The translations under genes were made by a program, and so were the position numbers. Positions 1,316 to 9,670 of a stretch of 9,670 nt of DNA are shown piece by piece. The notes beneath the pieces were generated by a model that was not told where the DNA came from, did no database searches, and worked only from the letters and a program-made list of their open reading frames with translations. Source of the stretch: a virus (taxonomy: Duplodnaviria > Heunggongvirae > Uroviricota > Caudoviricetes); the IMG/VR virus record IMGVR_UViG_2778261058_000021, positions 1 to 9,670 of that record. The stretch is one strand, 5' to 3'. The number at the start of each line of letters is the position of its first letter. Positions within the stretch are counted from its first letter, which is position 1.

Positions 1316-2056
1316 ATGCTTCATTGGGTTTGTATAAAATGTCAGTCTAAAAATTCTACGAAGGAATCAGTGTGTCCTGCGTGTGGAACTTCTTTTTGGT
1401 CGACGCAGAAAAAAGAAAGGAGAGGGTGTTTATTGTTAGTTGTAATGTTCTTCGTTGTGTTTTGGGTTATTGGGCAATTATCCGGAAACGAATCCGATTC
1501 ACAGGTAAATAATATTCCATCGAAAGATCATATTAGCGATGAACTTGCTTTATCTGGAGTAGACAAGGCGAAACCGTATTCTTTTGTGCGTTATGATGAC
1601 ATAAGTTATGCGGGACGAAAGAGATTTAAGGTTTTTATAGTGTCGCCTGAGTCTCAAGATTTAGAATCAAGAGCTTCGACAGCAATGGCCGCGGCTATTG
1701 AGTGGCAGAAAGAGAAGAGAGCTGACTTTGTATCTGTGTTGCTTCTACCTACGGAAAATTCTGAAGGTAGTTATCGGTTGGCAATGGTTGATTATTCTCC
1801 GGATGGTTGCGGAACTGGTGCTGTATGTGATAATAAAAAATGGACTATATTGTCTAGTGACGTAATATTAACGAAATCGCAACTTCAATCTATATCCTTG
1901 TGGAATGAGTATAAGAAAAAGTTTGCGGGTAATGATGGGATTTTGGATTTAAAGGAAGAAAAGAAATTGAAGCAGTTTATTAGTAAACAGCTAAATATTC
2001 CTGTTAAGGATGTATTTACTCCAGATATTTTTCCTTTAAAGAAAATCGAAGATTAA
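1316..2056 (+). CDS. hypothetical membrane-anchored protein: N-terminal CxxC-N11-CxxC zinc ribbon, basic stretch, one TM helix, ~190 aa extracytoplasmic domain; AT-rich, probably horizontally acquired
   Basis: 246-aa ORF with GGAG about 10 nt upstream of the ATG. CIKCQ...CPACG motif, then QKKERRG, then hydrophobic CLLLVVMFFVVFWVIGQL. Codon usage is A/T-rich unlike flanking genes. A hairpin/terminator follows. I recognise no family. Confidence 0.7.
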   Translation: MLHWVCIKCQSKNSTKESVCPACGTSFWSTQKKERRGCLLLVVMFFVVFWVIGQLSGNESDSQVNNIPSKDHISDELALSGVDKAKPYSFVRYDDISYAGRKRFKVFIVSPESQDLESRASTAMAAAIEWQKEKRADFVSVLLLPTENSEGSYRLAMVDYSPDGCGTGAVCDNKKWTILSSDVILTKSQLQSISLWNEYKKKFAGNDGILDLKEEKKLKQFISKQLNIPVKDVFTPDIFPLKKIED

Positions 2057-2248: not shown

Positions 2249-2389
2249 TTACTGTTTACACTGTAAGAACGCCGCAAACTCCGCTCCCCAGAAGCTCATC
2301 CGTATCTCACACAGCGAACCGTGCAGCATCCAGATGATAAGGATCGCCGTCACGCAGAACGTGATGGCTGTAAGCGATTTTTGCGACAT
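2249..2389 (-). CDS. hok: Hok/Gef-family type I toxin (46 aa); not in the supplied ORF track
   Basis: Minus-strand translation MSQKSLTAITFCVTAILIIWMLHGSLCEIRMSFWGAEFAAFLQCKQ: N-terminal TM helix, then SLCEIR and AAFL.CK motifs typical of Hok proteins as I recall them (closest to HokA). AAGGAG lies 7 nt upstream of the ATG. TAA stop at 2251-2249. Confidence 0.8.
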   Translation of the reverse strand: MSQKSLTAITFCVTAILIIWMLHGSLCEIRMSFWGAEFAAFLQCKQ

Positions 2390-2611
2390 AGCGCTTGCTC
2401 CTTTTTTGGGGAGGCGCTAACCTATCACTTGTCTAGGGTAGATGGTTAGGGCCTCGGTTAAACAAAAATGTTTTCCGGGGCCTTTCCACATCCGGCCTTC
2501 AGGTATTCCCTCCAGCCATCAGCCGAAAGGCACCCGCGCGAATTCTAGCCTGGTTTTTTCCCTTGTTTCAATCCGTTGAGACTTATCAGCCTTCTGATGT
2601 AGAATTCCCGA

Positions 2612-2676
2612 CCGCAGACATTATTCAGTCACGCATTTGATACATGCTTCCGCCGGCGTTCGCGCCGGTTTTTTTG
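2612..2676 (+). ncRNA. candidate Sok-like antisense RNA (about 65 nt) opposite the hok leader
   Basis: Plus-strand -35 TTGAGA (2576-2581), 18-bp spacer, -10 TAGAAT (2600-2605), then a strong intrinsic terminator at 2651-2675. The size matches the known Sok RNA. Position relative to the true hok mRNA 5' end is not established. Confidence 0.25.
2651..2675 (+). terminator. rho-independent terminator on the plus strand
   Basis: Stem ccggcg (2653-2658) / cgccgg (2663-2668), loop ttcg, followed by seven T (2669-2675). No plus-strand protein gene ends here, so it probably terminates a small RNA. Confidence 0.55.
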
Positions 2677-2692
2677 TCCTGTTGCTGCGTAG

Positions 2693-2949
2693 ATCGTTAT
2701 GTGCGATCGATGCGCTGTATTGATCCTTTTTTCAGTTTAATTTTGACTCTTAATTTTACGCAGGCCGCGCCGCGTCTGGCTTCGTTGTTTGACGATTTTT
2801 TGATGCGATCCTCTCGTGATCGCTTTTTGTCTCACGTAAAGTATAAAAACCCTTTTAATATCATGCAGTTTTATTGCTTCTGCCATTTGTGCGATCGTAA
2901 AAACCTCTCTGAAAACTGCAAAAAATTTCAAAACGTGAAATTTCTGATC
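2693..2949. repeat. GATC (Dam methylation site) cluster in AT-rich non-coding DNA
   Basis: Seven GATC at 2693, 2705, 2722, 2807, 2818, 2893 and 2946 within about 257 bp (roughly one expected by chance); several sit in a recurring GCGATCG context. AT-rich runs are interspersed. Confidence 0.5.
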
Positions 2950-3055
2950 TTCGCTTTTCCCTCAGTTGCTGCGCGGGCTGGCGGTCATTTTTGCACGGCA
3001 GAAAACTGAAAAAGTGTTTCGACACAAAACCCGCGGGTTGGAGGGGGTAGCGCGG

Positions 3056-3099
3056 TTTACGTCACCTCACGCTTTACGTCACACCGTTTACGTGGTGTG
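3056..3099. repeat. three direct TTTACGT repeats with an embedded inverted repeat cacacc-N8-ggtgtg
   Basis: gTTTACGTcac (3056-3066), cTTTACGTcac (3072-3082), gTTTACGTggt (3086-3096); inverted repeat at 3080-3099. Lies just beyond the 3' end of the tail operon. Confidence 0.4.
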
Positions 3100-3151
3100 C
3101 GCATACAGCGCCGGAATGGCACGCAGAACGCATTAATCAGGTGGCAGATAT

Positions 3152-3179
3152 GGAAAACGCACGGCCTGAACCGTGCGTT
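3152..3179 (-). terminator. candidate intrinsic terminator of the minus-strand tail operon
   Basis: Perfect 9-bp stem aacgcacgg (3156-3164) / ccgtgcgtt (3171-3179), loop cctgaa. On the minus strand it is followed by only a short U-tract (about 4 U). About 40-60 nt downstream of the stop at 3218. Confidence 0.35.
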
Positions 3180-3217
3180 GCGTGATGGGGCGTTTATGTG
3201 GATTTTATGCCCGGTGA

Positions 3218-4915
3218 TTAGGCGATAAGGTCGCCGTATTTTTCGCGAAGGCTTGTAGCCTGTTGGGCGTCTGCGGCAAGTTCGCTGCTGTTTGTTGGTG
3301 CGCCAGTGTTGCTGTGGGTGTGGTTTGCAGTGTGTGTGGCCAGCAACTGAACCAGATCCAGAATATCAATCAACAACGTCAGCAGATTAAGTCCGGATTT
3401 TTCCCGTGAGCCACCGCGCCCAATAAATACAGTCGGGGCAGTAAATTCCAGGCCGCCGTCCGCCCGGCATGTTCTGCGGCCTCCCACGTTTTCGGTGAGG
3501 TTATGCTCGATGGTGGATGTCGCCCCTTTGAGTTTAGTCAGCAAATCCTGCGCTACCATCTGGATATGCTCACCGGCTGCGATCGCATAATGGCCAGTAG
3601 TAATGTGTTCTGTCTGACCTGTCATCAGCTTGCTGGTTCCCAGAACGCTGGTTATGTCGTTTGCCTGTACTGTTGTTGTTCTGGTTGTTGTTGTGCGTTC
3701 TTCCTGATCGCTGTTAATGGTTCGCCTGGCTGAATGCTCCCTGATTTGCTGGTCGGTTTCTCTGTGCCAGCTTCCGTCAGTCGTGACACGCTGAAACACT
3801 TCTGCGCGCTGTTGTTGCAATTGTTCGCCGGGCTTTACATTAGGCAGGTTATGACCAGCGGGTAAGATTTGCCTGATGACAGGTTTATCCGGTCGTCCTT
3901 CAATGTTGGATATTTCCACGATGGTGCCAGCCGGCGGGTAGGCAAAACATCCCGCCTCACTGCCAGCCATGGGGACGGGGAGCGGTACTGCCGGGTAAAC
4001 GGGCGTATCGCTTTTATCGTTGCCGTTCTCATCAAGCAACTGCACATCGACGGCGTAGCGTGGGCGGAAACTGTCGGCCACATCGCCCAGGGTGGCGGGC
4101 TCCGTTGGTGCAATGACGCGCGCCAGCCGGGTATGTAGCGTACCGCTGGCCAGTTCCGGAAACTGTGTTTCCATTTGTCTGCGTAATGGTGATTTGGAAA
4201 CAGGGCTGCCCGTGGCGGTAAGGCGCTCCCATGTCAGGGTCATTTTCTCGTTGTTGAGGGCTACACGGGTAATGCGCCCGGCCGGAAGGTTCACGCCCGG
4301 TCGCACAGTTTCCATAAACATGATGTCGATGCTGTTTCCGCCGCTTTGCCCGAGTGTGTACTGTTGCGGAATATCCGGCATTGTAATACTGGCAAATCGT
4401 GAATCAGCTGCGCTTCCCACAAATACAGAACCGTCCGGCATAGGGTGCCAGACGTAATCGCTGATACTGAATGCTCGCCCCAGTTGGCTGAGCAGTTGTG
4501 CTCCGCTGCCGCTGTGGGTGATGTAGGGAGTTGGTATGCTGACGTAATCCGCATCTGGCGTGATGAAAACGATGCCGCTTTGTTTACCCAGATTATCGAG
4601 TACCCCCCGTAACGTCGGGTGTTGCATGGAGCAAGGGAAATCAAAATCCAGCACAGCAGCTGCTTCACGGATAAAAAGGCGACGTGAGCCATTTTCAGCA
4701 GGTTGATCGCGCTCAATGTAGCCGGAGAAATAGCGCCATGCTTCACCGTCACGGCCGAGATCAATTTGTACCATTGCGCCGGCAAGGGGGTGTTCGGGTG
4801 ACAGATTGTTAACAGAAATGAAGCCGCGACCGGCGGCATTCAGGGTAAGAACAAGGTTTATATCGGCAATTTCCACCCGTTCGCCATTAATCATGCAGCG
4901 TTGTATCAATTTCAT
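3218..4915 (-). CDS. uncharacterised phage protein (565 aa); C-terminus has a metal-site-like HTANHTH motif resembling fibre/spike tips
   Basis: Long ORF whose ATG overlaps the upstream stop as ATGA (4912-4915); GAGGAAGG-like SD upstream. C-terminal ...LLTLLIDILDLVQLLATHTANHTHSNTGAPT resembles HxH tip motifs I recall in P2 gpV (LHTHKHPGDSGG) and in lambda Stf / T4 gp37 (GAHAHS). No match to P2 sheath or tube proteins. Confidence 0.6.
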   Translation of the reverse strand: MKLIQRCMINGERVEIADINLVLTLNAAGRGFISVNNLSPEHPLAGAMVQIDLGRDGEAWRYFSGYIERDQPAENGSRRLFIREAAAVLDFDFPCSMQHPTLRGVLDNLGKQSGIVFITPDADYVSIPTPYITHSGSGAQLLSQLGRAFSISDYVWHPMPDGSVFVGSAADSRFASITMPDIPQQYTLGQSGGNSIDIMFMETVRPGVNLPAGRITRVALNNEKMTLTWERLTATGSPVSKSPLRRQMETQFPELASGTLHTRLARVIAPTEPATLGDVADSFRPRYAVDVQLLDENGNDKSDTPVYPAVPLPVPMAGSEAGCFAYPPAGTIVEISNIEGRPDKPVIRQILPAGHNLPNVKPGEQLQQQRAEVFQRVTTDGSWHRETDQQIREHSARRTINSDQEERTTTTRTTTVQANDITSVLGTSKLMTGQTEHITTGHYAIAAGEHIQMVAQDLLTKLKGATSTIEHNLTENVGGRRTCRADGGLEFTAPTVFIGRGGSREKSGLNLLTLLIDILDLVQLLATHTANHTHSNTGAPTNSSELAADAQQATSLREKYGDLIA

Positions 4916-5487
4916 GTTTTCCCTTCCTCTTTCACGCTCCCGATGCCAACAGCATCCAGACCAGAGCCAACGGCATCATTGATTTTTTTCCAGAACGAAC
5001 TTTGTGTATTCATGCCTTTGTCTGGTGCCTGTTCGCTACCGTTCTGGGTCTGCTGTCTGGCGATGGTTTTCTGCGAACCGCTGCGTGCGGATGCTTTCTC
5101 TGGCACGCTTAATTTTTCCCTGAGAGTAAAGGTGACCTGCCAGTGCATTTTTCCCTGTTGTTCCGTGGCATCAATGCCACCAGAAAATACCCCCTGTCGC
5201 ATATTGATTGCCTTCGCGGTAGCGTTAGCAATGCGATATGTTTTTTTGGCACCGTTGCTTTCTGTTGCCTCCGCAAGCTGAAAAATACGGGTCAGAATAG
5301 CTTCATCGTTAAAATCAATAACCCCCGACACGCGCAGCTCTTTAGCCTTGTTTCCCTGCTGGGCGCTCGTGGTGCTGGTTGACTGTCCGGACATATCTTT
5401 GTCCGGTAGTTGCATGGTGGCGCTGACGGTGATGTTGCGCAGCAGAATGGCTTCCCCGTCAAGCGCAAGGACAATCATCTGGGTCAT
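4912..5487 (-). CDS. uncharacterised phage-associated protein (191 aa)
   Basis: ORF in the same operon; overlaps the upstream gene by 29 nt and the downstream gene by 4 nt (ATGA). Ser/Thr/Gln-rich with no recognisable catalytic motif. An internal later start is possible. Confidence 0.55.
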   Translation of the reverse strand: MTQMIVLALDGEAILLRNITVSATMQLPDKDMSGQSTSTTSAQQGNKAKELRVSGVIDFNDEAILTRIFQLAEATESNGAKKTYRIANATAKAINMRQGVFSGGIDATEQQGKMHWQVTFTLREKLSVPEKASARSGSQKTIARQQTQNGSEQAPDKGMNTQSSFWKKINDAVGSGLDAVGIGSVKEEGKT

Positions 5488-6172
5488 GTAGTGCTTCCCT
5501 TAGTGATGAGAGATTATCGCCGACGAACAGCATCACAGCTGTAAAAACCCACTCGGGGTGTGGGATGTTTTTTTGTATCAGCACTGCAGCCTGGCTAAGG
5601 ACTCCCTTGTAGCAAAAGCGCCACACCGGGCAAAATTTTTGCCGGAGTGCGGCCTGCTGATCAGCGATTTCCTGTAAGGCTTTATCTCTCGCATTCATGA
5701 ACTGATGCAGTGATGATGACAATGTTTCCGGTGATGTGGCGGCAGGATTGGCTGCCTGTGCAATGGTTGCCGCCAGCGACATGCTGCGAGTGGTCTGTGT
5801 CGACAGCATTATCGGTTCCGGAAGTGATGTTGCCGGTCTGGCGGGGATTTGCATTCTGCTGATGGACAGTGAAAGCTGGCTGGAGATCATGCGGGACATT
5901 CGTCCCACCTCCGGCAACGGAAATGCGCCTGAAAATTGCCTGGCGAGTGATAAAAACTCGCCAGCAGAAGGAGCGCAAAATAACAGCGCCACAATGTCCT
6001 TTTCCGTGTTTTCTTTCAAATAGGGTAAAAGTGCAGATACAGCATTTTCGGGGCTGAGATAACGCCCCGATGGTTTGATGTTTCCGGTATTTTCTGACCA
6101 TGGATGAAGGCAAACCACAGAGCATTTAATGTTCATGGCCGACGGGCGCAGAATTGCCTTTTCCCATTTCAT
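5459..6172 (-). CDS. uncharacterised phage-associated protein (237 aa; alternative start at 6136 gives 225 aa)
   Basis: ATG at 6172 overlaps the stop of the upstream gene (ATGA at 6169-6172), implying translational coupling. No family recognised. Confidence 0.55.
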   Translation of the reverse strand: MKWEKAILRPSAMNIKCSVVCLHPWSENTGNIKPSGRYLSPENAVSALLPYLKENTEKDIVALLFCAPSAGEFLSLARQFSGAFPLPEVGRMSRMISSQLSLSISRMQIPARPATSLPEPIMLSTQTTRSMSLAATIAQAANPAATSPETLSSSLHQFMNARDKALQEIADQQAALRQKFCPVWRFCYKGVLSQAAVLIQKNIPHPEWVFTAVMLFVGDNLSSLREALHDPDDCPCA

Positions 6173-6750
6173 TCTGACTCTCCAGCCTGAAAAGCGCGGA
6201 TGTCGGCAAGATTATTCAGGCTATCCAGCACGTCCTTCATCTGTCGCTGACGCTGATAAATCTCGTCATTGCGATCGACCTGCGCCTGCGCCAGTGCTGT
6301 TGCCAGTTCTTCCAGTTCCGGCATCGACAGTTTCACCTGTTGATTATCGGCGTCACCCCATGCCATAACGTCCCGAGCTGTGTCGGATTTTGATGCCATC
6401 ACCACCGGATAAAGGCGAGCCAGTGAGTCGGGGCCAGCGTTCCAGATGTGGCCGTTCCATTCGAACGTGAACGGCTTCGCTTCCTGTTCTGTGCGCCACA
6501 CCTCGATTTCCCGCTTTTTGGCATCTTTTGCCGCTGCGATAAGTTCCGGCGTGACGGTGAACGGGGCGATTTCGCCCCATTTGCCGCTCTGTAACTCTTC
6601 CCAGATGCGCTGGCCTGTCGGTGCGGTATCGTCCTGCATGGCGGTATACGGGACGAATTCCGTTTCACCTTCAAATAACACCTCGCAGTCAACCGCATCA
6701 TTTTCGAGATAATGGGCGTTTCTGATGCCCTTTACCGCTCTGATTTTCAT
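6169..6750 (-). CDS. uncharacterised phage tail-associated protein (193 aa); possibly a chaperone/assembly factor for the adjacent fibre-like protein
   Basis: AAGGAG 8 nt upstream of the ATG at 6750; follows the 648-aa fibre-like gene after a 14-nt gap. Lacks the C-terminal motif of P2 gpG-type Tfa (W/Y..VL..RVD...WP), so a chaperone role is inferred from position only. Confidence 0.6.
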   Translation of the reverse strand: MKIRAVKGIRNAHYLENDAVDCEVLFEGETEFVPYTAMQDDTAPTGQRIWEELQSGKWGEIAPFTVTPELIAAAKDAKKREIEVWRTEQEAKPFTFEWNGHIWNAGPDSLARLYPVVMASKSDTARDVMAWGDADNQQVKLSMPELEELATALAQAQVDRNDEIYQRQRQMKDVLDSLNNLADIRAFQAGESE

Positions 6751-6764
6751 GTTCTATCTCCTTG

Positions 6765-8711
6765 TTACTCAATGCGCACGAACAAACAGATAAAGCCTCT
6801 GTCGCCATACGTTGCACGATAACCTGACAGGGCCTGATAACGACCGGGAAAACTGAATGCCCCAGCACCACCCGCCTTTACTGAAGGTGTGGAACCGTAT
6901 GTCCCGGAATTATTAATTGCACAGTCGATAGCCACAGGACCAAGTCGCGACCCCGCCACTACATCCCCAAGGCCAATTTTTATTTCCTTATCCCCTGCCG
7001 CTGTTCCCTGATAGACCGCGAGAATAAGAGAGCCAACTGCCGGATATTTGTAATATGAGTACGGGCCATTGCCCGCTGTCCGGGACAACAAGAACGCCAG
7101 CGAATCGCCGTCGTAAATAATGGGGCTTACTGTTGCATTCCAGTTGTTTCCACTCCAGCGGTAAGTCAGGCGATGAATGCTGTGTTCGCCTTCGTAATAC
7201 TGGTTAAAACACAGCAGCGTTTTGAATTTGCGTATTGCATCTGATTCGTCATTATCAAAGGGCGACCACATCACATCCATGATGCCGTTAAATTTCGTGG
7301 TGCCCGCCAGTAGTGTGGAAGAGTCCGCAATACTGACCGCATAACGCCCCGGGGTGGCCTCTTTCAGCCATTCAGCAAAATCAGCCTGACCGTTAAATGC
7401 CAGGGCTTCGGTGCTGGTAAATGCCTGACCGAATCCATACATGCCGGACAGCGCCAGCCTGCCCGGTGTACGATCCCAGATATCAGATTGCGCGTCTTTT
7501 ACAGTTGTGTTGCCAGTTAATGGAGTAAGATCTCTCCATACAACAGGGGCTCCGTAGTCAGAGCCGCGAACGCAGGAAAGAATACGTCCGTCTCTTCCGT
7601 AAAACAGAATAAGTTTTGTTGCTGTCTGGCTGGTTTTGTCATTCTGCCAGTTGTCCAGCCAGATAAATTCGACCACACCAGTTAAATCACCTGATGACAT
7701 TGATGATGTGTAATACCGACCCGGACCTGTGTTCATGCATATCAACGCAAGCTCATCAAGATTTGTAATGCCGAGCACCATCCCCTCGTGCTCTGTCATT
7801 CCGTATCCAAATGCCCCCGGTAGCGCCAGCCTGCCTGGTGTGCGGTCGCGGATATTGCTCTGGGGCTCCATCGTCGCAGCCGCTTTCAGTTCAAGTTCCG
7901 TGCGCATGGCTTCAGGTGTGTCCAGTGCCAGTAATGCGCGGGCTTTTTCTGACAGCGGAGAGAGAGAAACATTCCCGTCCTGATTAAAGTACAGAAGATT
8001 ATCTGCCCGTTTCGTCAGTTCACTGATTGCCGTCAGCAAATCGTTCAGCGGTTGTTTACCCGCCAGCGCGTTAATGACCGTCGCCGAAAAGTTCGGGTCA
8101 TTGCCCAGCGCCGCTGCCAGTTCGTTCAGTGTGTCCAGGGCTTCCGGTGATGAGTCAACCAGTGCGGCGAGCAGTTTGCGAACAAACGCTGCGTTCGCCA
8201 TCTCCAGCCCGACCGCATCGTCTGGCGGAGTTGGTGTGGTTGGCGTGCCGGTGAACGCCGGGCTGTCCAGTGGCGCTTTTTTGTTTATTTCAGGAAAAAG
8301 ATCTACCTGCCAGCTCTGTGGAGGAACGGTAATTTGCGCAGCCTGAGCAATGCCGCTGTATATAATTGTGAAATTACGAATAAGTGATTCGCCTGTTACT
8401 TTTTGTTGAACAGGCGTCTTTATTACGCCGCATAGTGTTCCGCTGGCCTGATGGATAAGGCAAATCCAGTCATAACTGAATGCACAGTCATCAGGAACAA
8501 CCGCGCTACACACAATATTGTTCGGGCTTAACTGGCCGTAGGTCAGTTCATTCACAGCATATGTGATTTTTTCTTCCGGAACGGTATTATCTTCGCGCGC
8601 TGGTTCCCGCTCCATCAGAGCAAAAATAATAGCGTCAGGGCGTGCAGGTAAATTACTGGCTGTGCATTCAGCAACCCACTTTTCAAATGCTTTCGTCAAC
8701 AGTGCGCTCAT
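6765..8711 (-). CDS. tail fibre-like protein (648 aa) with an unrecognised ~145-aa N-terminal domain, a conserved fibre collar segment and an internally duplicated C-terminal region
   Basis: Segment NKKAPLDSPAFTGTPTTPT...AALVDSSPEALDTLNELAAALGNDPNFSATVINALAGKQP matches the conserved segment I recall in P2 gpH and lambda Stf. The C-terminal half holds two diverged copies of a domain starting QS.I.DRTPGRLAL.G..G.G. Starts 6 nt after the tfa stop. Confidence 0.8.
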   Translation of the reverse strand: MSALLTKAFEKWVAECTASNLPARPDAIIFALMEREPAREDNTVPEEKITYAVNELTYGQLSPNNIVCSAVVPDDCAFSYDWICLIHQASGTLCGVIKTPVQQKVTGESLIRNFTIIYSGIAQAAQITVPPQSWQVDLFPEINKKAPLDSPAFTGTPTTPTPPDDAVGLEMANAAFVRKLLAALVDSSPEALDTLNELAAALGNDPNFSATVINALAGKQPLNDLLTAISELTKRADNLLYFNQDGNVSLSPLSEKARALLALDTPEAMRTELELKAAATMEPQSNIRDRTPGRLALPGAFGYGMTEHEGMVLGITNLDELALICMNTGPGRYYTSSMSSGDLTGVVEFIWLDNWQNDKTSQTATKLILFYGRDGRILSCVRGSDYGAPVVWRDLTPLTGNTTVKDAQSDIWDRTPGRLALSGMYGFGQAFTSTEALAFNGQADFAEWLKEATPGRYAVSIADSSTLLAGTTKFNGIMDVMWSPFDNDESDAIRKFKTLLCFNQYYEGEHSIHRLTYRWSGNNWNATVSPIIYDGDSLAFLLSRTAGNGPYSYYKYPAVGSLILAVYQGTAAGDKEIKIGLGDVVAGSRLGPVAIDCAINNSGTYGSTPSVKAGGAGAFSFPGRYQALSGYRATYGDRGFICLFVRIE

Positions 8712-8717
8712 TACTTC

Positions 8718-9272
8718 TTAATTCTTGCTAATGTTCTGCGGTAATTCTGGCCATACAATCGCGGCATACGATGCTTTATCTGTAACCTGGCTGAATGTCA
8801 TCTCCCGTAACGTTTTTGTATAAATACGGCATGCTTTCAGTTTTTCCTTGTCTTCGTCGCTGATTAATCCCAGCAGCAGGTCTTTTTCCCACTCGCTAGT
8901 TATGATGCTGATCTGTTTTAACAGAGCATCACGCTCATCTTCCGCTTTAAGTTTGTGGTCGAAAACAAATTCATCATTGCGATAAAACCAGTATCCCGAC
9001 GCCTCAATGCGACGATTAGCGGTAATATCCGGCAATTCAATCACACTTTTATTTTCCGGGCAGATTGAGGTGATGTCTTTTCCGACCCAGACCACTTCGC
9101 CAGTTTCGGCATAAATAACTTTCAGAGTGTCTGGCTGAAATTTTTCCTGGGCTTCGTGCCATTCCTGGCCATCATCTGAGAACAGCCACAATAAAAATTT
9201 ATGCTGCCGCGCCAGCTGGTATTGCTCAATTGTTTTGGGGTTTTGTGCCGTAAGATTTTTTAAGTGCATCAT
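8718..9272 (-). CDS. tail fibre assembly protein (P2 gpG / Mu U family, 184 aa)
   Basis: N-terminus MMHLKNLTAQNPKTIEQYQL closely resembles the P2 gpG / Mu U N-terminus (M.HLKN....NPKTKEQYQL) as I recall it; PDITANRR and C-terminal WPELP motifs are also present. Starts 2 nt after the upstream fibre stop. Confidence 0.85.
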   Translation of the reverse strand: MMHLKNLTAQNPKTIEQYQLARQHKFLLWLFSDDGQEWHEAQEKFQPDTLKVIYAETGEVVWVGKDITSICPENKSVIELPDITANRRIEASGYWFYRNDEFVFDHKLKAEDERDALLKQISIITSEWEKDLLLGLISDEDKEKLKACRIYTKTLREMTFSQVTDKASYAAIVWPELPQNISKN

Positions 9273-9274
9273 GA

Positions 9275-9670
9275 TTACAAACTCGCTACATTCCGCCAGA
9301 CGCCATTAATCAGAACCTGTACCGGGCGGGCATTGGCCCAGTCCATACTTTCACCACCATCAAGACCGCTGATAAGGTGACCTGATGGTGCATTCCCGCC
9401 ACGCCCAATACCAATGGCACTGCCCAGACGCACATCCTGTACACCGCCTGTTTTGGCCTGATAGCGGGCATCAAAGTTTCCGTAGTTTGATGGAACCATC
9501 TGCCCGTTTACAGCGAACGTTATACTGTTATCCGTATTCCTCTGACTGTAAAAATGCCAGCCGGAATCATCGCCAAGCTCTGCAACTACAGGTCGGGATG
9601 AATTACCCCATAAACTAAACGTTGCGTTTTTCGTGGAGTTGTTGGCGCTGGATAACGTGAATTTTTTAGC
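9275..9670 (-). CDS. tail fibre protein, C-terminal part only (P2 gpH-like); the reading frame stays open to the window edge
   Basis: I translated the frame upstream of the listed 74-aa ORF and it stays open to 9670: ...NSTKNATFSLWGNSSRPVVAELGDDSGWHFYSQRNTDNSITFAVNGQMVPSNYGNFDARY...LINGVWRNVASL. This is close to the P2 gpH C-terminus as I remember it (STKNITFNLWGASTRPVVAELGDEAGWHFYSQRNTDNSVIFAVNGQMQPSNWGNFDSRY...INGTWYNVAQV). TAA at 9277-9275. Confidence 0.85.
   Translation of the reverse strand, partial: AKKFTLSSANNSTKNATFSLWGNSSRPVVAELGDDSGWHFYSQRNTDNSITFAVNGQMVPSNYGNFDARYQAKTGGVQDVRLGSAIGIGRGGNAPSGHLISGLDGGESMDWANARPVQVLINGVWRNVASL

Follow-up and report, generated by a model that had tools for sequence, protein, structure and literature searches.

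The 9,670-nt stretch of viral DNA analysed here (the window) almost certainly carries, on its minus strand, a hok-family type I toxin locus: an intact hok/sok-type cassette encoding a small membrane toxin, a Hok of the 46-residue "cluster 72" subfamily. Sequence complementarity and covariation indicate that its mRNA is very probably a two-state RNA switch, in which the 5′ end pairs with a 3′ fbi element in the full-length, closed form or with an internal ucb element in the 3′-trimmed form. Thermodynamic folding, the sole basis for this last part of the reading, suggests that the switch might gate hok directly, independently of mok, a proposal that we rate slightly short of even odds. To the explanation as a whole, which combines locus identity, two-state switch and mok-independent gating, we assign a probability of roughly 0.6.

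The hok coding sequence (2389–2249, minus strand) consists of 46 codons and a TAA stop, and a Shine-Dalgarno sequence, AAGGAG (2403–2398, minus), is found 8 nt 5′ of its ATG. The encoded protein, MSQKSLTAITFCVTAILIIWMLHGSLCEIRMSFWGAEFAAFLQCKQ, falls within the size range of Hok/Gef toxins (about 45–55 aa) and contains a hydrophobic stretch (LTAITFCVTAILIIWML) followed by SLCEIR and then AEFAAFLQCK. In scans of this ORF against Pfam, PHROG and NCBIfam, HOK_GEF (PF01848) matches over profile positions 5–42 of 42 with 29.9 bits (cut-off 22; E = 4.1e-7), and phrog_251 matches over the full length with 80.6 bits (E = 1.3e-22). Matches of this quality are not due to chance. They substantiate the first-pass annotation of the sequence, which had picked out a minus-strand 46-aa ORF with Hok hallmarks and a strong Shine-Dalgarno and had allowed that alignment might reveal the motifs as coincidental. 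Sixty-seven homologues are found at E ≤ 0.001, and the NCBI name, where one is given, is Hok/Gef. Residues G24, C27, E28 and E37 are invariant across 18 members of the subfamily; the positions conserved family-wide, according to a recent catalogue of Hok proteins, are L30, C31, E32 and E41 (bioRxiv 10.1101/2025.08.07.668861). Within the subfamily, dN/dS of hok is about 0.2. The best NCBIfam match is the HokA equivalog NF007290, yet it scores 34 bits against a cut-off of 89, and membership of HokA was rejected on this basis. HokA of E. coli K-12 shares the AAFL.CK tail; the comparison with it is one of proteins, the K-12 hokA leader being interrupted by IS150. Database relatives of 59–81 aa were suspected to be fusions of an upstream ORF to hok and turned out to be C-terminal stop-loss or frameshift variants.

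As a gene call, this adds nothing new. RefSeq WP_000078916.1 is identical to the Hok of the window and is annotated as a Hok/Gef family protein, so that the locus was "unlisted", as had been claimed, only in the ORF track of the first-pass annotation. The exact same peptide appears in Table S2 of the Hok catalogue as 72_1621 (plasmid LRP137), among the experimentally tested homologues (bioRxiv 10.1101/2025.08.07.668861). Forty-two of the 45 tested homologues were toxic, and 72_1621 is not among the three non-toxic ones named in the text (bioRxiv 10.1101/2025.08.07.668861). Read by exclusion from the text of the preprint rather than from a figure, 72_1621 thus appears to be toxic, and the toxicity test appears already to have been done. 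In that assay the coding sequence was expressed from an arabinose promoter with a fixed Shine-Dalgarno, not from the present locus (bioRxiv 10.1101/2025.08.07.668861). The same work describes cluster 72 as highly abundant and hok as enriched in prophages, making a prophage hok a reported pattern, and its authors left Mok, Sok and the mRNA elements unanalysed, calling analysis of Mok "not trivial" (bioRxiv 10.1101/2025.08.07.668861). There is no difference from cluster 72 or WP_000078916.1 at the level of the protein; what we add is the analysis of the leader elements. As cargo, the cassette occupies the end of a prophage that is P88-like (Peduoviridae) and integrated next to flk, in agreement with the earlier placement of the locus in mobile DNA. 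Phage P88 has a Hok of the same subfamily, differing by one residue and annotated at the phage end. Carriers of cluster-72 Hok include P88-like and Stx prophages, and Salmonella, where the gene occurs as tandem copies. The label "MokW-like host killing" seen in phages does not denote an annotated mok; it is the name of the PHROG family (phrog_251) placed on the 46-aa Hok.

A predicted hok promoter with 10 of 12 matches in a consensus scan (2571–2542, minus) is composed of a −35 box TTGAAA (2571–2566), an 18-nt spacer and a −10 box TAGAAT (2547–2542). The predicted start, near 2535, coincides with the 5′ end of a match to the Rfam sok/hok-leader family RF01794, which spans 2535–2401 end to end on the hok strand with 47.3 bits (E = 2.7e-8), below the gathering score of 59. 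A terminator scan identifies an intrinsic terminator (2163–2134, minus) with an 11-bp stem followed by a T-run. The full-length mRNA, predicted at about 405 nt (2535–2131, minus), would run from GGGUGCC to the terminator U-run, and its minimum free energy (MFE) of −174.8 kcal/mol corresponds to z = −8.6 against shuffles. Elsewhere in the window, a match to RsmY at 5428–5569 was set aside as chance (18.7 bits against 57; E = 0.44), and a possible small transcript at 2612–2678 (plus) is, outside its terminator, no more stably folded than shuffles (z = −1.45).

For comparison, loci were gathered by matching a DNA pattern to viral contigs and by looking up the exact protein, yielding 91 related loci for locus counts and 77 distinct relatives for covariation. 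An alignment query of a one-genome-per-species collection returned 7 loci only, three of them under non-enterobacterial names and apparently mislabelled or contaminated.

All of the pairing elements expected of a hok mRNA can be located by folding. A tac-like element at the 5′ end, GGGUGCCUUUCGGCU (2535–2521, minus), has two predicted partners: fbi as long as the mRNA is full-length, and ucb once the 3′ end has been trimmed. The fbi-like element (..ACUGAUAAGGCACCC; 2198–2182, minus) is complementary to the 5′ end and pairs with positions 1–15 in the MFE structure; among relatives this pairing is 90% maintained, with compensatory changes in 5 of 15 pairs. The ucb-like element, GGAAAGGCCCC (2487–2477, minus), is likewise predicted to switch partners, from the GAGG region before trimming to tac afterwards; the tac–ucb helix is 96% paired with compensatory change in 4 of 12 pairs. 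Positions 10–12 of tac change on both sides with fbi, and positions 10 and 11 change with ucb as well. Folding of the leader had been suggested as a search for fbi/tac-like elements, and it uncovers tac, fbi and ucb, each with compensatory changes in relatives.

Two mutually exclusive hairpins lie further downstream. The antisense-target hairpin (2455–2411, minus) is built from a GAGGC arm (2455–2451), a loop CUAGACAAG (2436–2428) containing a YUNR-type CUAG, and a GCCUC arm (2415–2411). It is present in the fold of the trimmed mRNA, has a free energy of −17.5 kcal/mol alone, and is 87% paired among relatives, 4 of its 14 pairs being compensatory. The alternative hairpin, UAGCGCCUCC/GGAGCAAGCGCUA (2419–2389, minus), masks the hok Shine-Dalgarno together with the first base of the AUG; it occurs in the full-length MFE structure and also when the Sok site is blocked during folding, at −12.2 kcal/mol alone. 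Its lower stem is 99.6% paired, through G-U-compatible changes only, with zero compensatory double changes among the relatives. Further 3′, the hairpin GACGGGGGAAGAGAUUCCCCCGUC (2240–2215, minus) is 99.7% paired with 6 of 10 pairs compensatory, which is compatible with protection of a trimmed end. Analogy with R1 (PMC9841398) makes it the presumed end-point of 3′ trimming and protector of the trimmed mRNA.

Both sets of structures are maintained well beyond controls. For the combination of tac–fbi and the Shine-Dalgarno-sequestering hairpin, 92.4% of cells are paired, versus 39–52% in slid controls, and 62 cells show double changes, versus 23.6 ± 3.7 in shuffles (none of 500 reaches 62). The combination of tac–ucb, target hairpin and 3′ hairpin is 93.3% paired, versus 39–56% in slid controls, and contains 14 compensatory pairs, a number reached by 3 of 500 shuffles.

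On the opposite strand, a putative sok promoter (2395–2423, plus) comprises a −35 box TTGCTC (2395–2400), a 17-nt spacer and a −10 box TAACCT (2418–2423). It is weak by consensus and the consensus scan made no call; its position and layout match those of TTGCGC-17-TATCCT in the R1-like locus. Across the 91 loci the −10 box is TAACCT in 88 and TATCCT in three, and the −35 box is TTGCTC in 69. One caveat is that conservation of the −10 box, and likewise of the dcb bases, is partly built in, because the DNA pattern used to find 60% of the loci itself includes these bases. From this promoter, a Sok-like RNA of about 60 nt may be made, with putative ends at 2430 and 2488 (plus). It would have a single-stranded 5′ part followed by a terminator hairpin, GGGCCUCGG..CCGGGGCC, and UUUCC; the predicted fold has a free energy of −28.1 kcal/mol (z = −4.1). 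By virtue of its cis-antisense position, its complementarity to the target loop is perfect.

Comparison with R1 hok/mok/sok (through an R1-like copy, L131) and with chromosomal hok paralogues, also proposed at the outset, reveals a shared leader layout from which the canonical mok start is absent in the window. Shared with R1 are the promoter, the GG(G/C)(U/G)GC 5′ end, the tac/ucb/fbi/dcb logic, the GAGG arm, the target hairpin, the 3′ protective hairpin, a putative antisense promoter in the same place with 17-nt spacing, and the SLCE(I)R core of the toxin, which has 46 aa in the prophage of the window versus 52 aa on the plasmid. GAGG serves in R1 as the mok Shine-Dalgarno (PMC9841398). The R1 mok starts 8 nt past GAGG and overlaps hok, whereas the window has AUC where the mok AUG would stand and no ORF overlapping the start of hok. 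Throughout the related loci, an ATG, GTG or TTG 3–13 nt past GAGG is missing in 89 of 91, frame 0 is closed in all 91, mostly because the sok −10 box supplies a TAG, and just 37 have an open frame 2. The hokC/mokC/sokC locus of E. coli K-12 and the hokW/mokW/sokW locus of phage 933W resemble the window in being chromosomal or prophage-borne, in leader layout and in having an upstream ORF in the hok frame; 933W also shares the AGGUUAGCCUC element (−10 TAACCT). In both of these loci, mok is a stop-free, in-frame N-terminal extension of hok with its ATG 8 nt past GAGG. The in-frame path of the window, unlike theirs, is cut by TAG (2419–2417), and some frame-0 stop is present in every one of the 91 relatives. 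The toxins differ as well: those of hokC and hokW are Gef/RelF-like proteins of 50–51 aa from another subfamily, and mokW/hokW of 933W is a distinct 51-aa locus. In cluster 72, a large natural subfamily, the RNA elements of the R1 switch are all present, with covariation, but a consistent mok is absent. A mok-like frame may nevertheless matter in some lineages, because 10 of the 15 distinct loci encoding the exact Hok of the window have an ORF overlapping the hok start; over the leader, frame 2 is also open about twice as often as in shuffles (41% versus 20.5%).

How might hok be controlled in such a leader? The spacer between GCCUC and the hok AUG is 21 nt in the window, versus 31 nt in R1, which allows GCCUCC to pair with the Shine-Dalgarno of hok itself. 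Folding predicts that gating acts on the hok Shine-Dalgarno in the window and on the mok Shine-Dalgarno in R1. In the window, the predicted cost of opening the hok Shine-Dalgarno is 5.95 kcal/mol in the full-length mRNA, 3.57 in the trimmed mRNA and 6.02 with the Sok site blocked. Means over the 77 relatives are 7.2, 4.9 and 7.5, respectively, and the trimmed value is below the full-length value in 71 of the 77 and below the Sok-blocked value in 72. The corresponding costs are flat for the R1-like locus (4.4/4.3/4.4) and for 933W (2.8/2.8/2.6); there, the mok Shine-Dalgarno is the element gated, falling from 9.1 to 6.2 and from 9.4 to 5.2. Only opening energy separates the mRNA forms in this manner, the mean unpaired probability of the hok Shine-Dalgarno being hardly different (0.33 versus 0.36). 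Moreover, R1 hok needs translation of mok as far as the hok Shine-Dalgarno (PMC9841398), yet folding gives its own Shine-Dalgarno a similar accessibility (4.3 kcal/mol); hence, predicted accessibility is no proof of independent translation.

With these reservations, the following scheme can be proposed. Trimming from the 3′ end back to the protective hairpin, the assumed trimming point, would allow the mRNA 5′ end to capture ucb. The GAGGC arm would then pair with GCCUCC to build the antisense-target hairpin, and in doing so would release the hok Shine-Dalgarno from that same GCCUCC. If the Sok-like RNA (about 60 nt), transcribed from the other strand, then bound the target hairpin, GCCUCC would be left free to re-sequester the Shine-Dalgarno, and the Sok/mRNA duplex would be marked for RNase III. 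In this way hok would be gated directly, without a mok reading frame. Sequestration of a toxin's own Shine-Dalgarno by successive mRNA structures is known from aapA/IsoA of Helicobacter pylori (PMC9841398), and is the mechanism we propose for cluster-72 hok; the toxin and RNA sequences are unrelated, and the likeness is inferred and mechanistic only.

It is also possible, if unlikely, that the window carries a decaying copy, in which an ancestral mok, starting at the same ATG as the upstream ORF and overlapping hok, has been disrupted: the length changed by 1 nt, and stop codons arose in the target loop (TAG) and at Cys27 (TGA). On this view, hok can no longer be translated and the cassette is inert. 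The first-pass annotation had likewise entertained a decayed mok, and this finds some support: in 13 of the 91 loci, including those of E. albertii and of a divergent Hok type, the homologous ATG (−103) opens an ORF of 61–79 codons that reads through hok to +83, +134 or +137. The mok-equivalent frame of the window has no start and contains TAG at −46 and TGA at +80, frameshifted and stop-loss Hok variants are common in databases, and IS elements adjoin the hokA and hokC loci in E. coli K-12. However, the subfamily as a whole has no consistent mok, and the mok-like starts (ATG −130, ATG −103, GTG −100, ATG −76, TTG −46) are as inconsistent as would be expected of fortuitously open frames. No damage is seen in the window to the hok ORF, to either predicted promoter, to any pairing element or to the terminator. 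Selection on hok, too, persists where no upstream ORF reaches the Shine-Dalgarno (dN/dS 0.20, versus 0.25 with an overlapping ORF), and Salmonella loci without any leader ATG retain intact 46-aa Hok genes, often in tandem.

A short upstream ORF does exist in the window, as first noted: it opens with ATG (2491–2489, minus), has 24 sense codons, ends with TAG (2419–2417) in the same frame as hok, and stops 13 nt before AAGGAG without overlapping hok. It was initially read as a variant coupling arrangement. In the most explicit form of that idea, which we consider improbable, the ORF is a working mok substitute: ribosomes would start at 2491, terminate at the TAG and unwind the GCCUCC/GGAG hairpin 13 nt downstream, permitting hok initiation, and Sok would act by blocking the upstream ORF. 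Translation of R1 mok is required only up to the hok Shine-Dalgarno (PMC9841398), and a ribosome terminating at this distance would reach the sequestering hairpin. A GAAGG is located 4 nt 5′ of the ATG, the ORF lies almost exactly inside the stretch presumed complementary to Sok, and the same arrangement recurs in 9 of the 91 loci. This recurrence, however, is limited to close relatives. Of the 91 loci, 27 lack the ATG; its distance to hok ranges over all values between 101 and 105 nt, no phase modulo 3 being favored, and the end of the ORF varies (−98, −57, −43, −35, −27, +83 or +134). An ATG-initiated ORF at least as long arises in 501 of 2000 dinucleotide-preserving shuffles of the 146-nt leader (25%), so its length is not beyond chance. 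The G of the ATG behaves as a stem base, pairing with C14 of the 5′ stem and covarying with it (CG to UA in 11 sequences); in either mRNA form, folding predicts an initiation region hidden within structure, at an opening cost of 10.6–11.8 kcal/mol; and purifying selection on Hok is equal where such an ORF is missing. Its stop codon, moreover, is created by the sok −10 box. Considering these results, we infer that the ORF arises incidentally from the sequence of the ucb/tac stem and from the sok −10 box and is not a conserved element, and coupling through it is not borne out.

The last alternative, that the Hok-like motifs are coincidental and the 46-aa ORF no gene, has only the shortness of the ORF in its favor and a negligible probability, given a Pfam score over the curated cut-off, the PHROG match, the homologues, dN/dS, the hok-leader RNA match and an identical peptide in the list of experimentally tested homologues.

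In accounts of hok/sok regulation, mok translation is taken to be a constant component. We tentatively suggest that cluster 72 may be a mok-independent hok/sok variant, in which the 10-nt shorter spacer turns the dcb sequence GCCUCC into the anti-Shine-Dalgarno of hok, GAGG, formerly the mok Shine-Dalgarno, acts only as an anti-anti-Shine-Dalgarno, and both 3′-end-triggered refolding and Sok switch hok directly. If hok is indeed translated without a leader ORF in cluster 72, these loci would provide a natural comparison for why R1 needs mok. If true, the model would also mean that an antisense RNA bound about 30 nt or more 5′ of the Shine-Dalgarno shuts the ribosome site purely by strand exchange.

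The minus-strand hok gene of the window (ATG at 2389 to TAA at 2249) encodes a 46-aa protein, MSQKSLTAITFCVTAILIIWMLHGSLCEIRMSFWGAEFAAFLQCKQ, and carries the Shine-Dalgarno (SD) sequence AAGGAG (2403–2398, minus strand) 8 nt 5′ of its ATG. The first-pass annotation was right to call a hok-family toxin here: the protein matches Pfam HOK_GEF with 29.9 bits (E = 4e-7; curated threshold 22), and the phrog_251 match (80.6 bits, E = 1.3e-22) is full-length. Coincidental Hok-like motifs are excluded. The top NCBIfam model is HokA, and the score of 34, far under the model cut-off of 89, indicates a separate Hok subfamily. A protein search returned 67 relatives in E. coli, Shigella, Salmonella and Klebsiella, called Hok/Gef wherever the source gives a name. 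Many database relatives (P0026, P0032–P0034, P0001, P0005, P0007, P0010–P0012) are 59–81 aa long because of stop-codon loss or frameshift after residue 34–46 (e.g. ...SFWERSLRRSYSV...), which shows that some copies of this hok type are in ongoing decay.

The locus is an ordinary prophage hok/sok cassette, catalogued before, and its identity as hok/sok-type is virtually certain. The window represents a chromosome segment of Escherichia coli type, and every one of the 5,426 complete E. coli genomes matches part of it; the segment includes flk (1–996), a DUF4875/zinc-ribbon gene (1316–2056, plus strand) convergent to hok, and prophage baseplate and tail-fibre genes (3218–9499). E. coli STEC719 has an identical protein from the same 141-nt gene, annotated 'Hok/Gef family protein' (WP_000078916.1). 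Some part of a 651-nt query is matched in 1,693 of the 5,426 genomes, and the 445-nt hok unit is matched by 197 phage records. Phage P88 (Peduoviridae, Xuanwuvirus) has an annotated Hok of the same subfamily, one residue different (A15V); there hok directly follows a tail gene near the record end, and in the window it is likewise the last gene, after a baseplate gene. A Hok catalogue (2025/26), which also reports enrichment of hok in prophages, lists the exact peptide as 72_1621, from a 'highly abundant cluster' and cloned as plasmid LRP137 (bioRxiv 10.1101/2025.08.07.668861). Table S2 of the catalogue, which holds 72_1621, contains experimentally tested sequences; toxicity is stated for 42 of the 45 homologues tested, and none of the three named exceptions is 72_1621 (bioRxiv 10.1101/2025.08.07.668861). 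By exclusion, 72_1621 is toxic, so the induction test proposed in the first-pass annotation appears already to have been done on this peptide. The assay used the coding sequence alone, with a fixed SD and an arabinose promoter (bioRxiv 10.1101/2025.08.07.668861).

Several observations concern the distribution of the locus. The DUF4875 protein (phrog_28655) has a zinc ribbon at its N terminus as well as a hydrophobic segment, and its gene is paired with hok again in Salmonella contigs (L134–L136); the two may move jointly as cargo at the prophage end. The matched stretch of some E. coli strains has a TM2-domain gene annotated next to hok. Salmonella enterica contigs (L132–L151) often carry the 46-aa hok in tandem, as two or three complete units ~500 bp apart (L142, 203–343 and 701–841; L149, 203–343, 701–841 and 1177–1317), each with its own leader, most leaders lacking any ATG. 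Near-identical or related loci in assemblies labelled Planococcaceae, Vagococcus and Xanthomonas pisi (L002, L003 and L006) probably stem from enterobacterial contamination or from mislabelled contigs, not from real hosts. The 46-aa Hok is labelled 'MokW-like host killing' in the records of phages P88 (L152) and phi346 (L153); we rejected this label, a PHROG family name, as a sign of a mok gene. Phage 933W has its true mokW/hokW/sokW at a different locus (L154, 10461–10735), with a 51-aa Gef/RelF-like protein and an in-frame mok.

In its RNA elements the locus follows the architecture of R1 hok/sok. A sigma-70-type promoter (TTGAAA-18-TAGAAT, 2571–2542, minus strand) places the expected transcript start near 2535, and a terminator lies at 2163–2134 (minus). 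A match to Rfam RF01794 begins at this predicted start (47.3 bits, E = 2.7e-8, short of the gathering score of 59); it is on the hok strand, so the model represents the hok leader. As predicted, the mRNA to the terminator would be 405 nt long; it folds at -174.8 kcal/mol (z = -8.6), and its first 15 bases pair in the fold with an fbi-like element, ..AAGGCACCC (2198–2182, minus), as in the tac–fbi fold-back of R1. With the mRNA truncated immediately beyond the 3′ hairpin (2240–2215, minus), the predicted partner of the 5′ end is the ucb-like GGAAAGGCCCC (2487–2477, minus), and GAGGC (2455–2451) and GCCUC (2415–2411) form a minus-strand antisense-target hairpin whose loop, CUAGACAAG, holds a YUNR-type CUAG. 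The GCCUC-to-hok-AUG spacer is 21 nt, versus 31 nt in R1, so that GCCUCC can pair with hok's own GGAG; the predicted SD-sequestering hairpin, UAGCGCCUCC/GGAGCAAGCGCUA (2419–2389, minus; -12.2 kcal/mol), competes for the same bases as the target hairpin (-17.5 kcal/mol). On the plus strand, a putative sok promoter, TTGCTC-17-TAACCT (2395–2423), sits at the place of TTGCGC-17-TATCCT in R1, and the predicted ~60-nt RNA folds with a strong terminal hairpin (-28.1 kcal/mol, z = -4.1).

A plus-strand promoter-like sequence, TTGAGA-18-TAGAAT (2576–2605), stands back to back with the promoter of hok; a terminator-like hairpin (2652–2669) and T-run follow it, which would give a ~65-nt transcript. This stretch (2576–2680, plus) has no Rfam match, folds no better than shuffles once the terminator is set aside (z = -1.45), and is absent upstream of hok in P88. 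The ~640-nt spacer that separates the baseplate gene from the hok promoter (2580–3217) also contains a second plus-strand terminator-like hairpin (2705–2725) and ORFs of 121 aa (plus) and 64 aa (minus); 50 complete E. coli genomes match it at 80–95% identity (48 of them at 90–95%), with no annotated feature under the match among the 12 records listed. An RsmY match within phage structural genes (5428–5569, plus) was judged to be chance (18.7 bits, gathering score 57, E = 0.44).

We assembled 91 distinct loci of the subfamily, seven from reference genomes and the rest from viral contigs (by DNA pattern) and Salmonella contigs (by exact protein), and aligned 77 distinct full-length sequences. 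Pairs specific to the full-length form (tac–fbi and the SD hairpin) are 92.4% paired, versus 39–52% with the partner slid, and show 62 double-change cells, versus 23.6 ± 3.7 in shuffles (reached by 0 of 500). Pairs of the trimmed form (tac–ucb, target hairpin and 3′ hairpin) are 93.3% paired, versus 39–56% slid; 14 show compensatory change, a level reached by 3 of 500 shuffles, and double-change cells number 158, versus 53.6. The shuffle control takes no account of relatedness, and hence we place most weight on the slid controls. Positions 10 and 11 of the mRNA co-change with both alternative partners, and this directly supports two pairings that exclude each other. A two-state RNA switch is highly probable.

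There is no consistent mok in this subfamily. The R1-like locus (L131), K-12 hokC and 933W hokW have the mok ATG exactly 8 nt past GAGG, whereas the window has AUC there, and 89 of the 91 relatives have no ATG, GTG or TTG 3–13 nt past GAGG. None of the 91 loci has frame 0 open, chiefly because of the TAG at the sok -10 box; eight have an open frame 1, and 37 an open frame 2, that of R1 mok (shuffle expectation 20.5%). Some ORF overlaps the hok start in 34 loci, from varied starts (ATG at -130, -103 or -76, GTG at -100, TTG at -46, GTG at the transcript's third base). The mok-equivalent frame of the window has no start and is interrupted twice, by a TAG at -46 in the target loop and by a TGA from the Cys27-Glu28 codons TGT-GAG.

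How hok is translated can be approached through predicted SD opening costs. In the window these are 5.95 kcal/mol for the full-length mRNA, 3.57 trimmed and 6.02 with the Sok-complementary stretch blocked; means over the 77 loci are 7.2, 4.9 and 7.5, with the trimmed cost below full-length in 71 and below Sok-blocked in 72. In two control loci with mok, by contrast, the hok SD is flat (4.4/4.3/4.4 and 2.8/2.8/2.6), and the element that opens is the mok SD (9.1 to 6.2 and 9.4 to 5.2). From these values we propose that GAGG in this subfamily would serve as an anti-anti-SD, such that 3′ trimming and Sok would both act directly on hok translation. We put the probability of such mok-independence, modelled from folds, at roughly 0.45. 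The SD hairpin shows only G-U-compatible changes and no double changes. R1 hok requires mok to be translated up to the hok SD (PMC9841398), even though that SD looks as accessible by the opening-cost measure. It is also conceivable, if unlikely, that mok has decayed and left the cassette inert: the same upstream ATG reads through hok in 13 of the 91 loci, and an overlapping ORF is present in 10 of 15 loci that encode the exact Hok of the window. Purifying selection on the Hok coding sequence is the same whether or not such an ORF is present (pairwise dN/dS, from non-independent values, 0.25 with one and 0.20 in loci without an upstream ORF to -30).

The short ORF reported upstream of hok does exist (minus strand, ATG at 2491 to TAG at 2419–2417; 24 sense codons, in the hok frame, with its stop 13 nt before AAGGAG). 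It is not a conserved element, and the variant coupling suggested for it is not supported. Of the 91 loci, 64 have its ATG, which Salmonella-type leaders lack; the distance to the hok ATG varies (101 nt, n = 4; 102, n = 18; 103, n = 23; 104, n = 13; 105, n = 6), so the frame is not kept. The ORF ends at -98, -83, -76, -57, -48, -43/-42, -36/-35, -27, +83, +134 or +137, and the stop at -27 seen in the window is common to only nine loci, every one a close relative. ATG ORFs of at least 24 codons arise in 25% of dinucleotide-shuffled leaders. RNA pairing explains at least part of the ATG's conservation, since its G pairs with C14 of the tac–ucb stem and covaries (CG to UA, 11 sequences). The TAG that closes the ORF is complementary to the -10 box of sok (AGGUUAG). 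The predicted opening cost at the ORF's initiation region is 10.6–11.8 kcal/mol in both mRNA forms. A functional uORF coupled to hok by termination beside the sequestering hairpin is improbable.

Only one lead has wider interest: throughout this Hok subfamily a conserved mok seems to be missing, and the ribosome-binding site of hok itself is, by prediction, part of the RNA switch.
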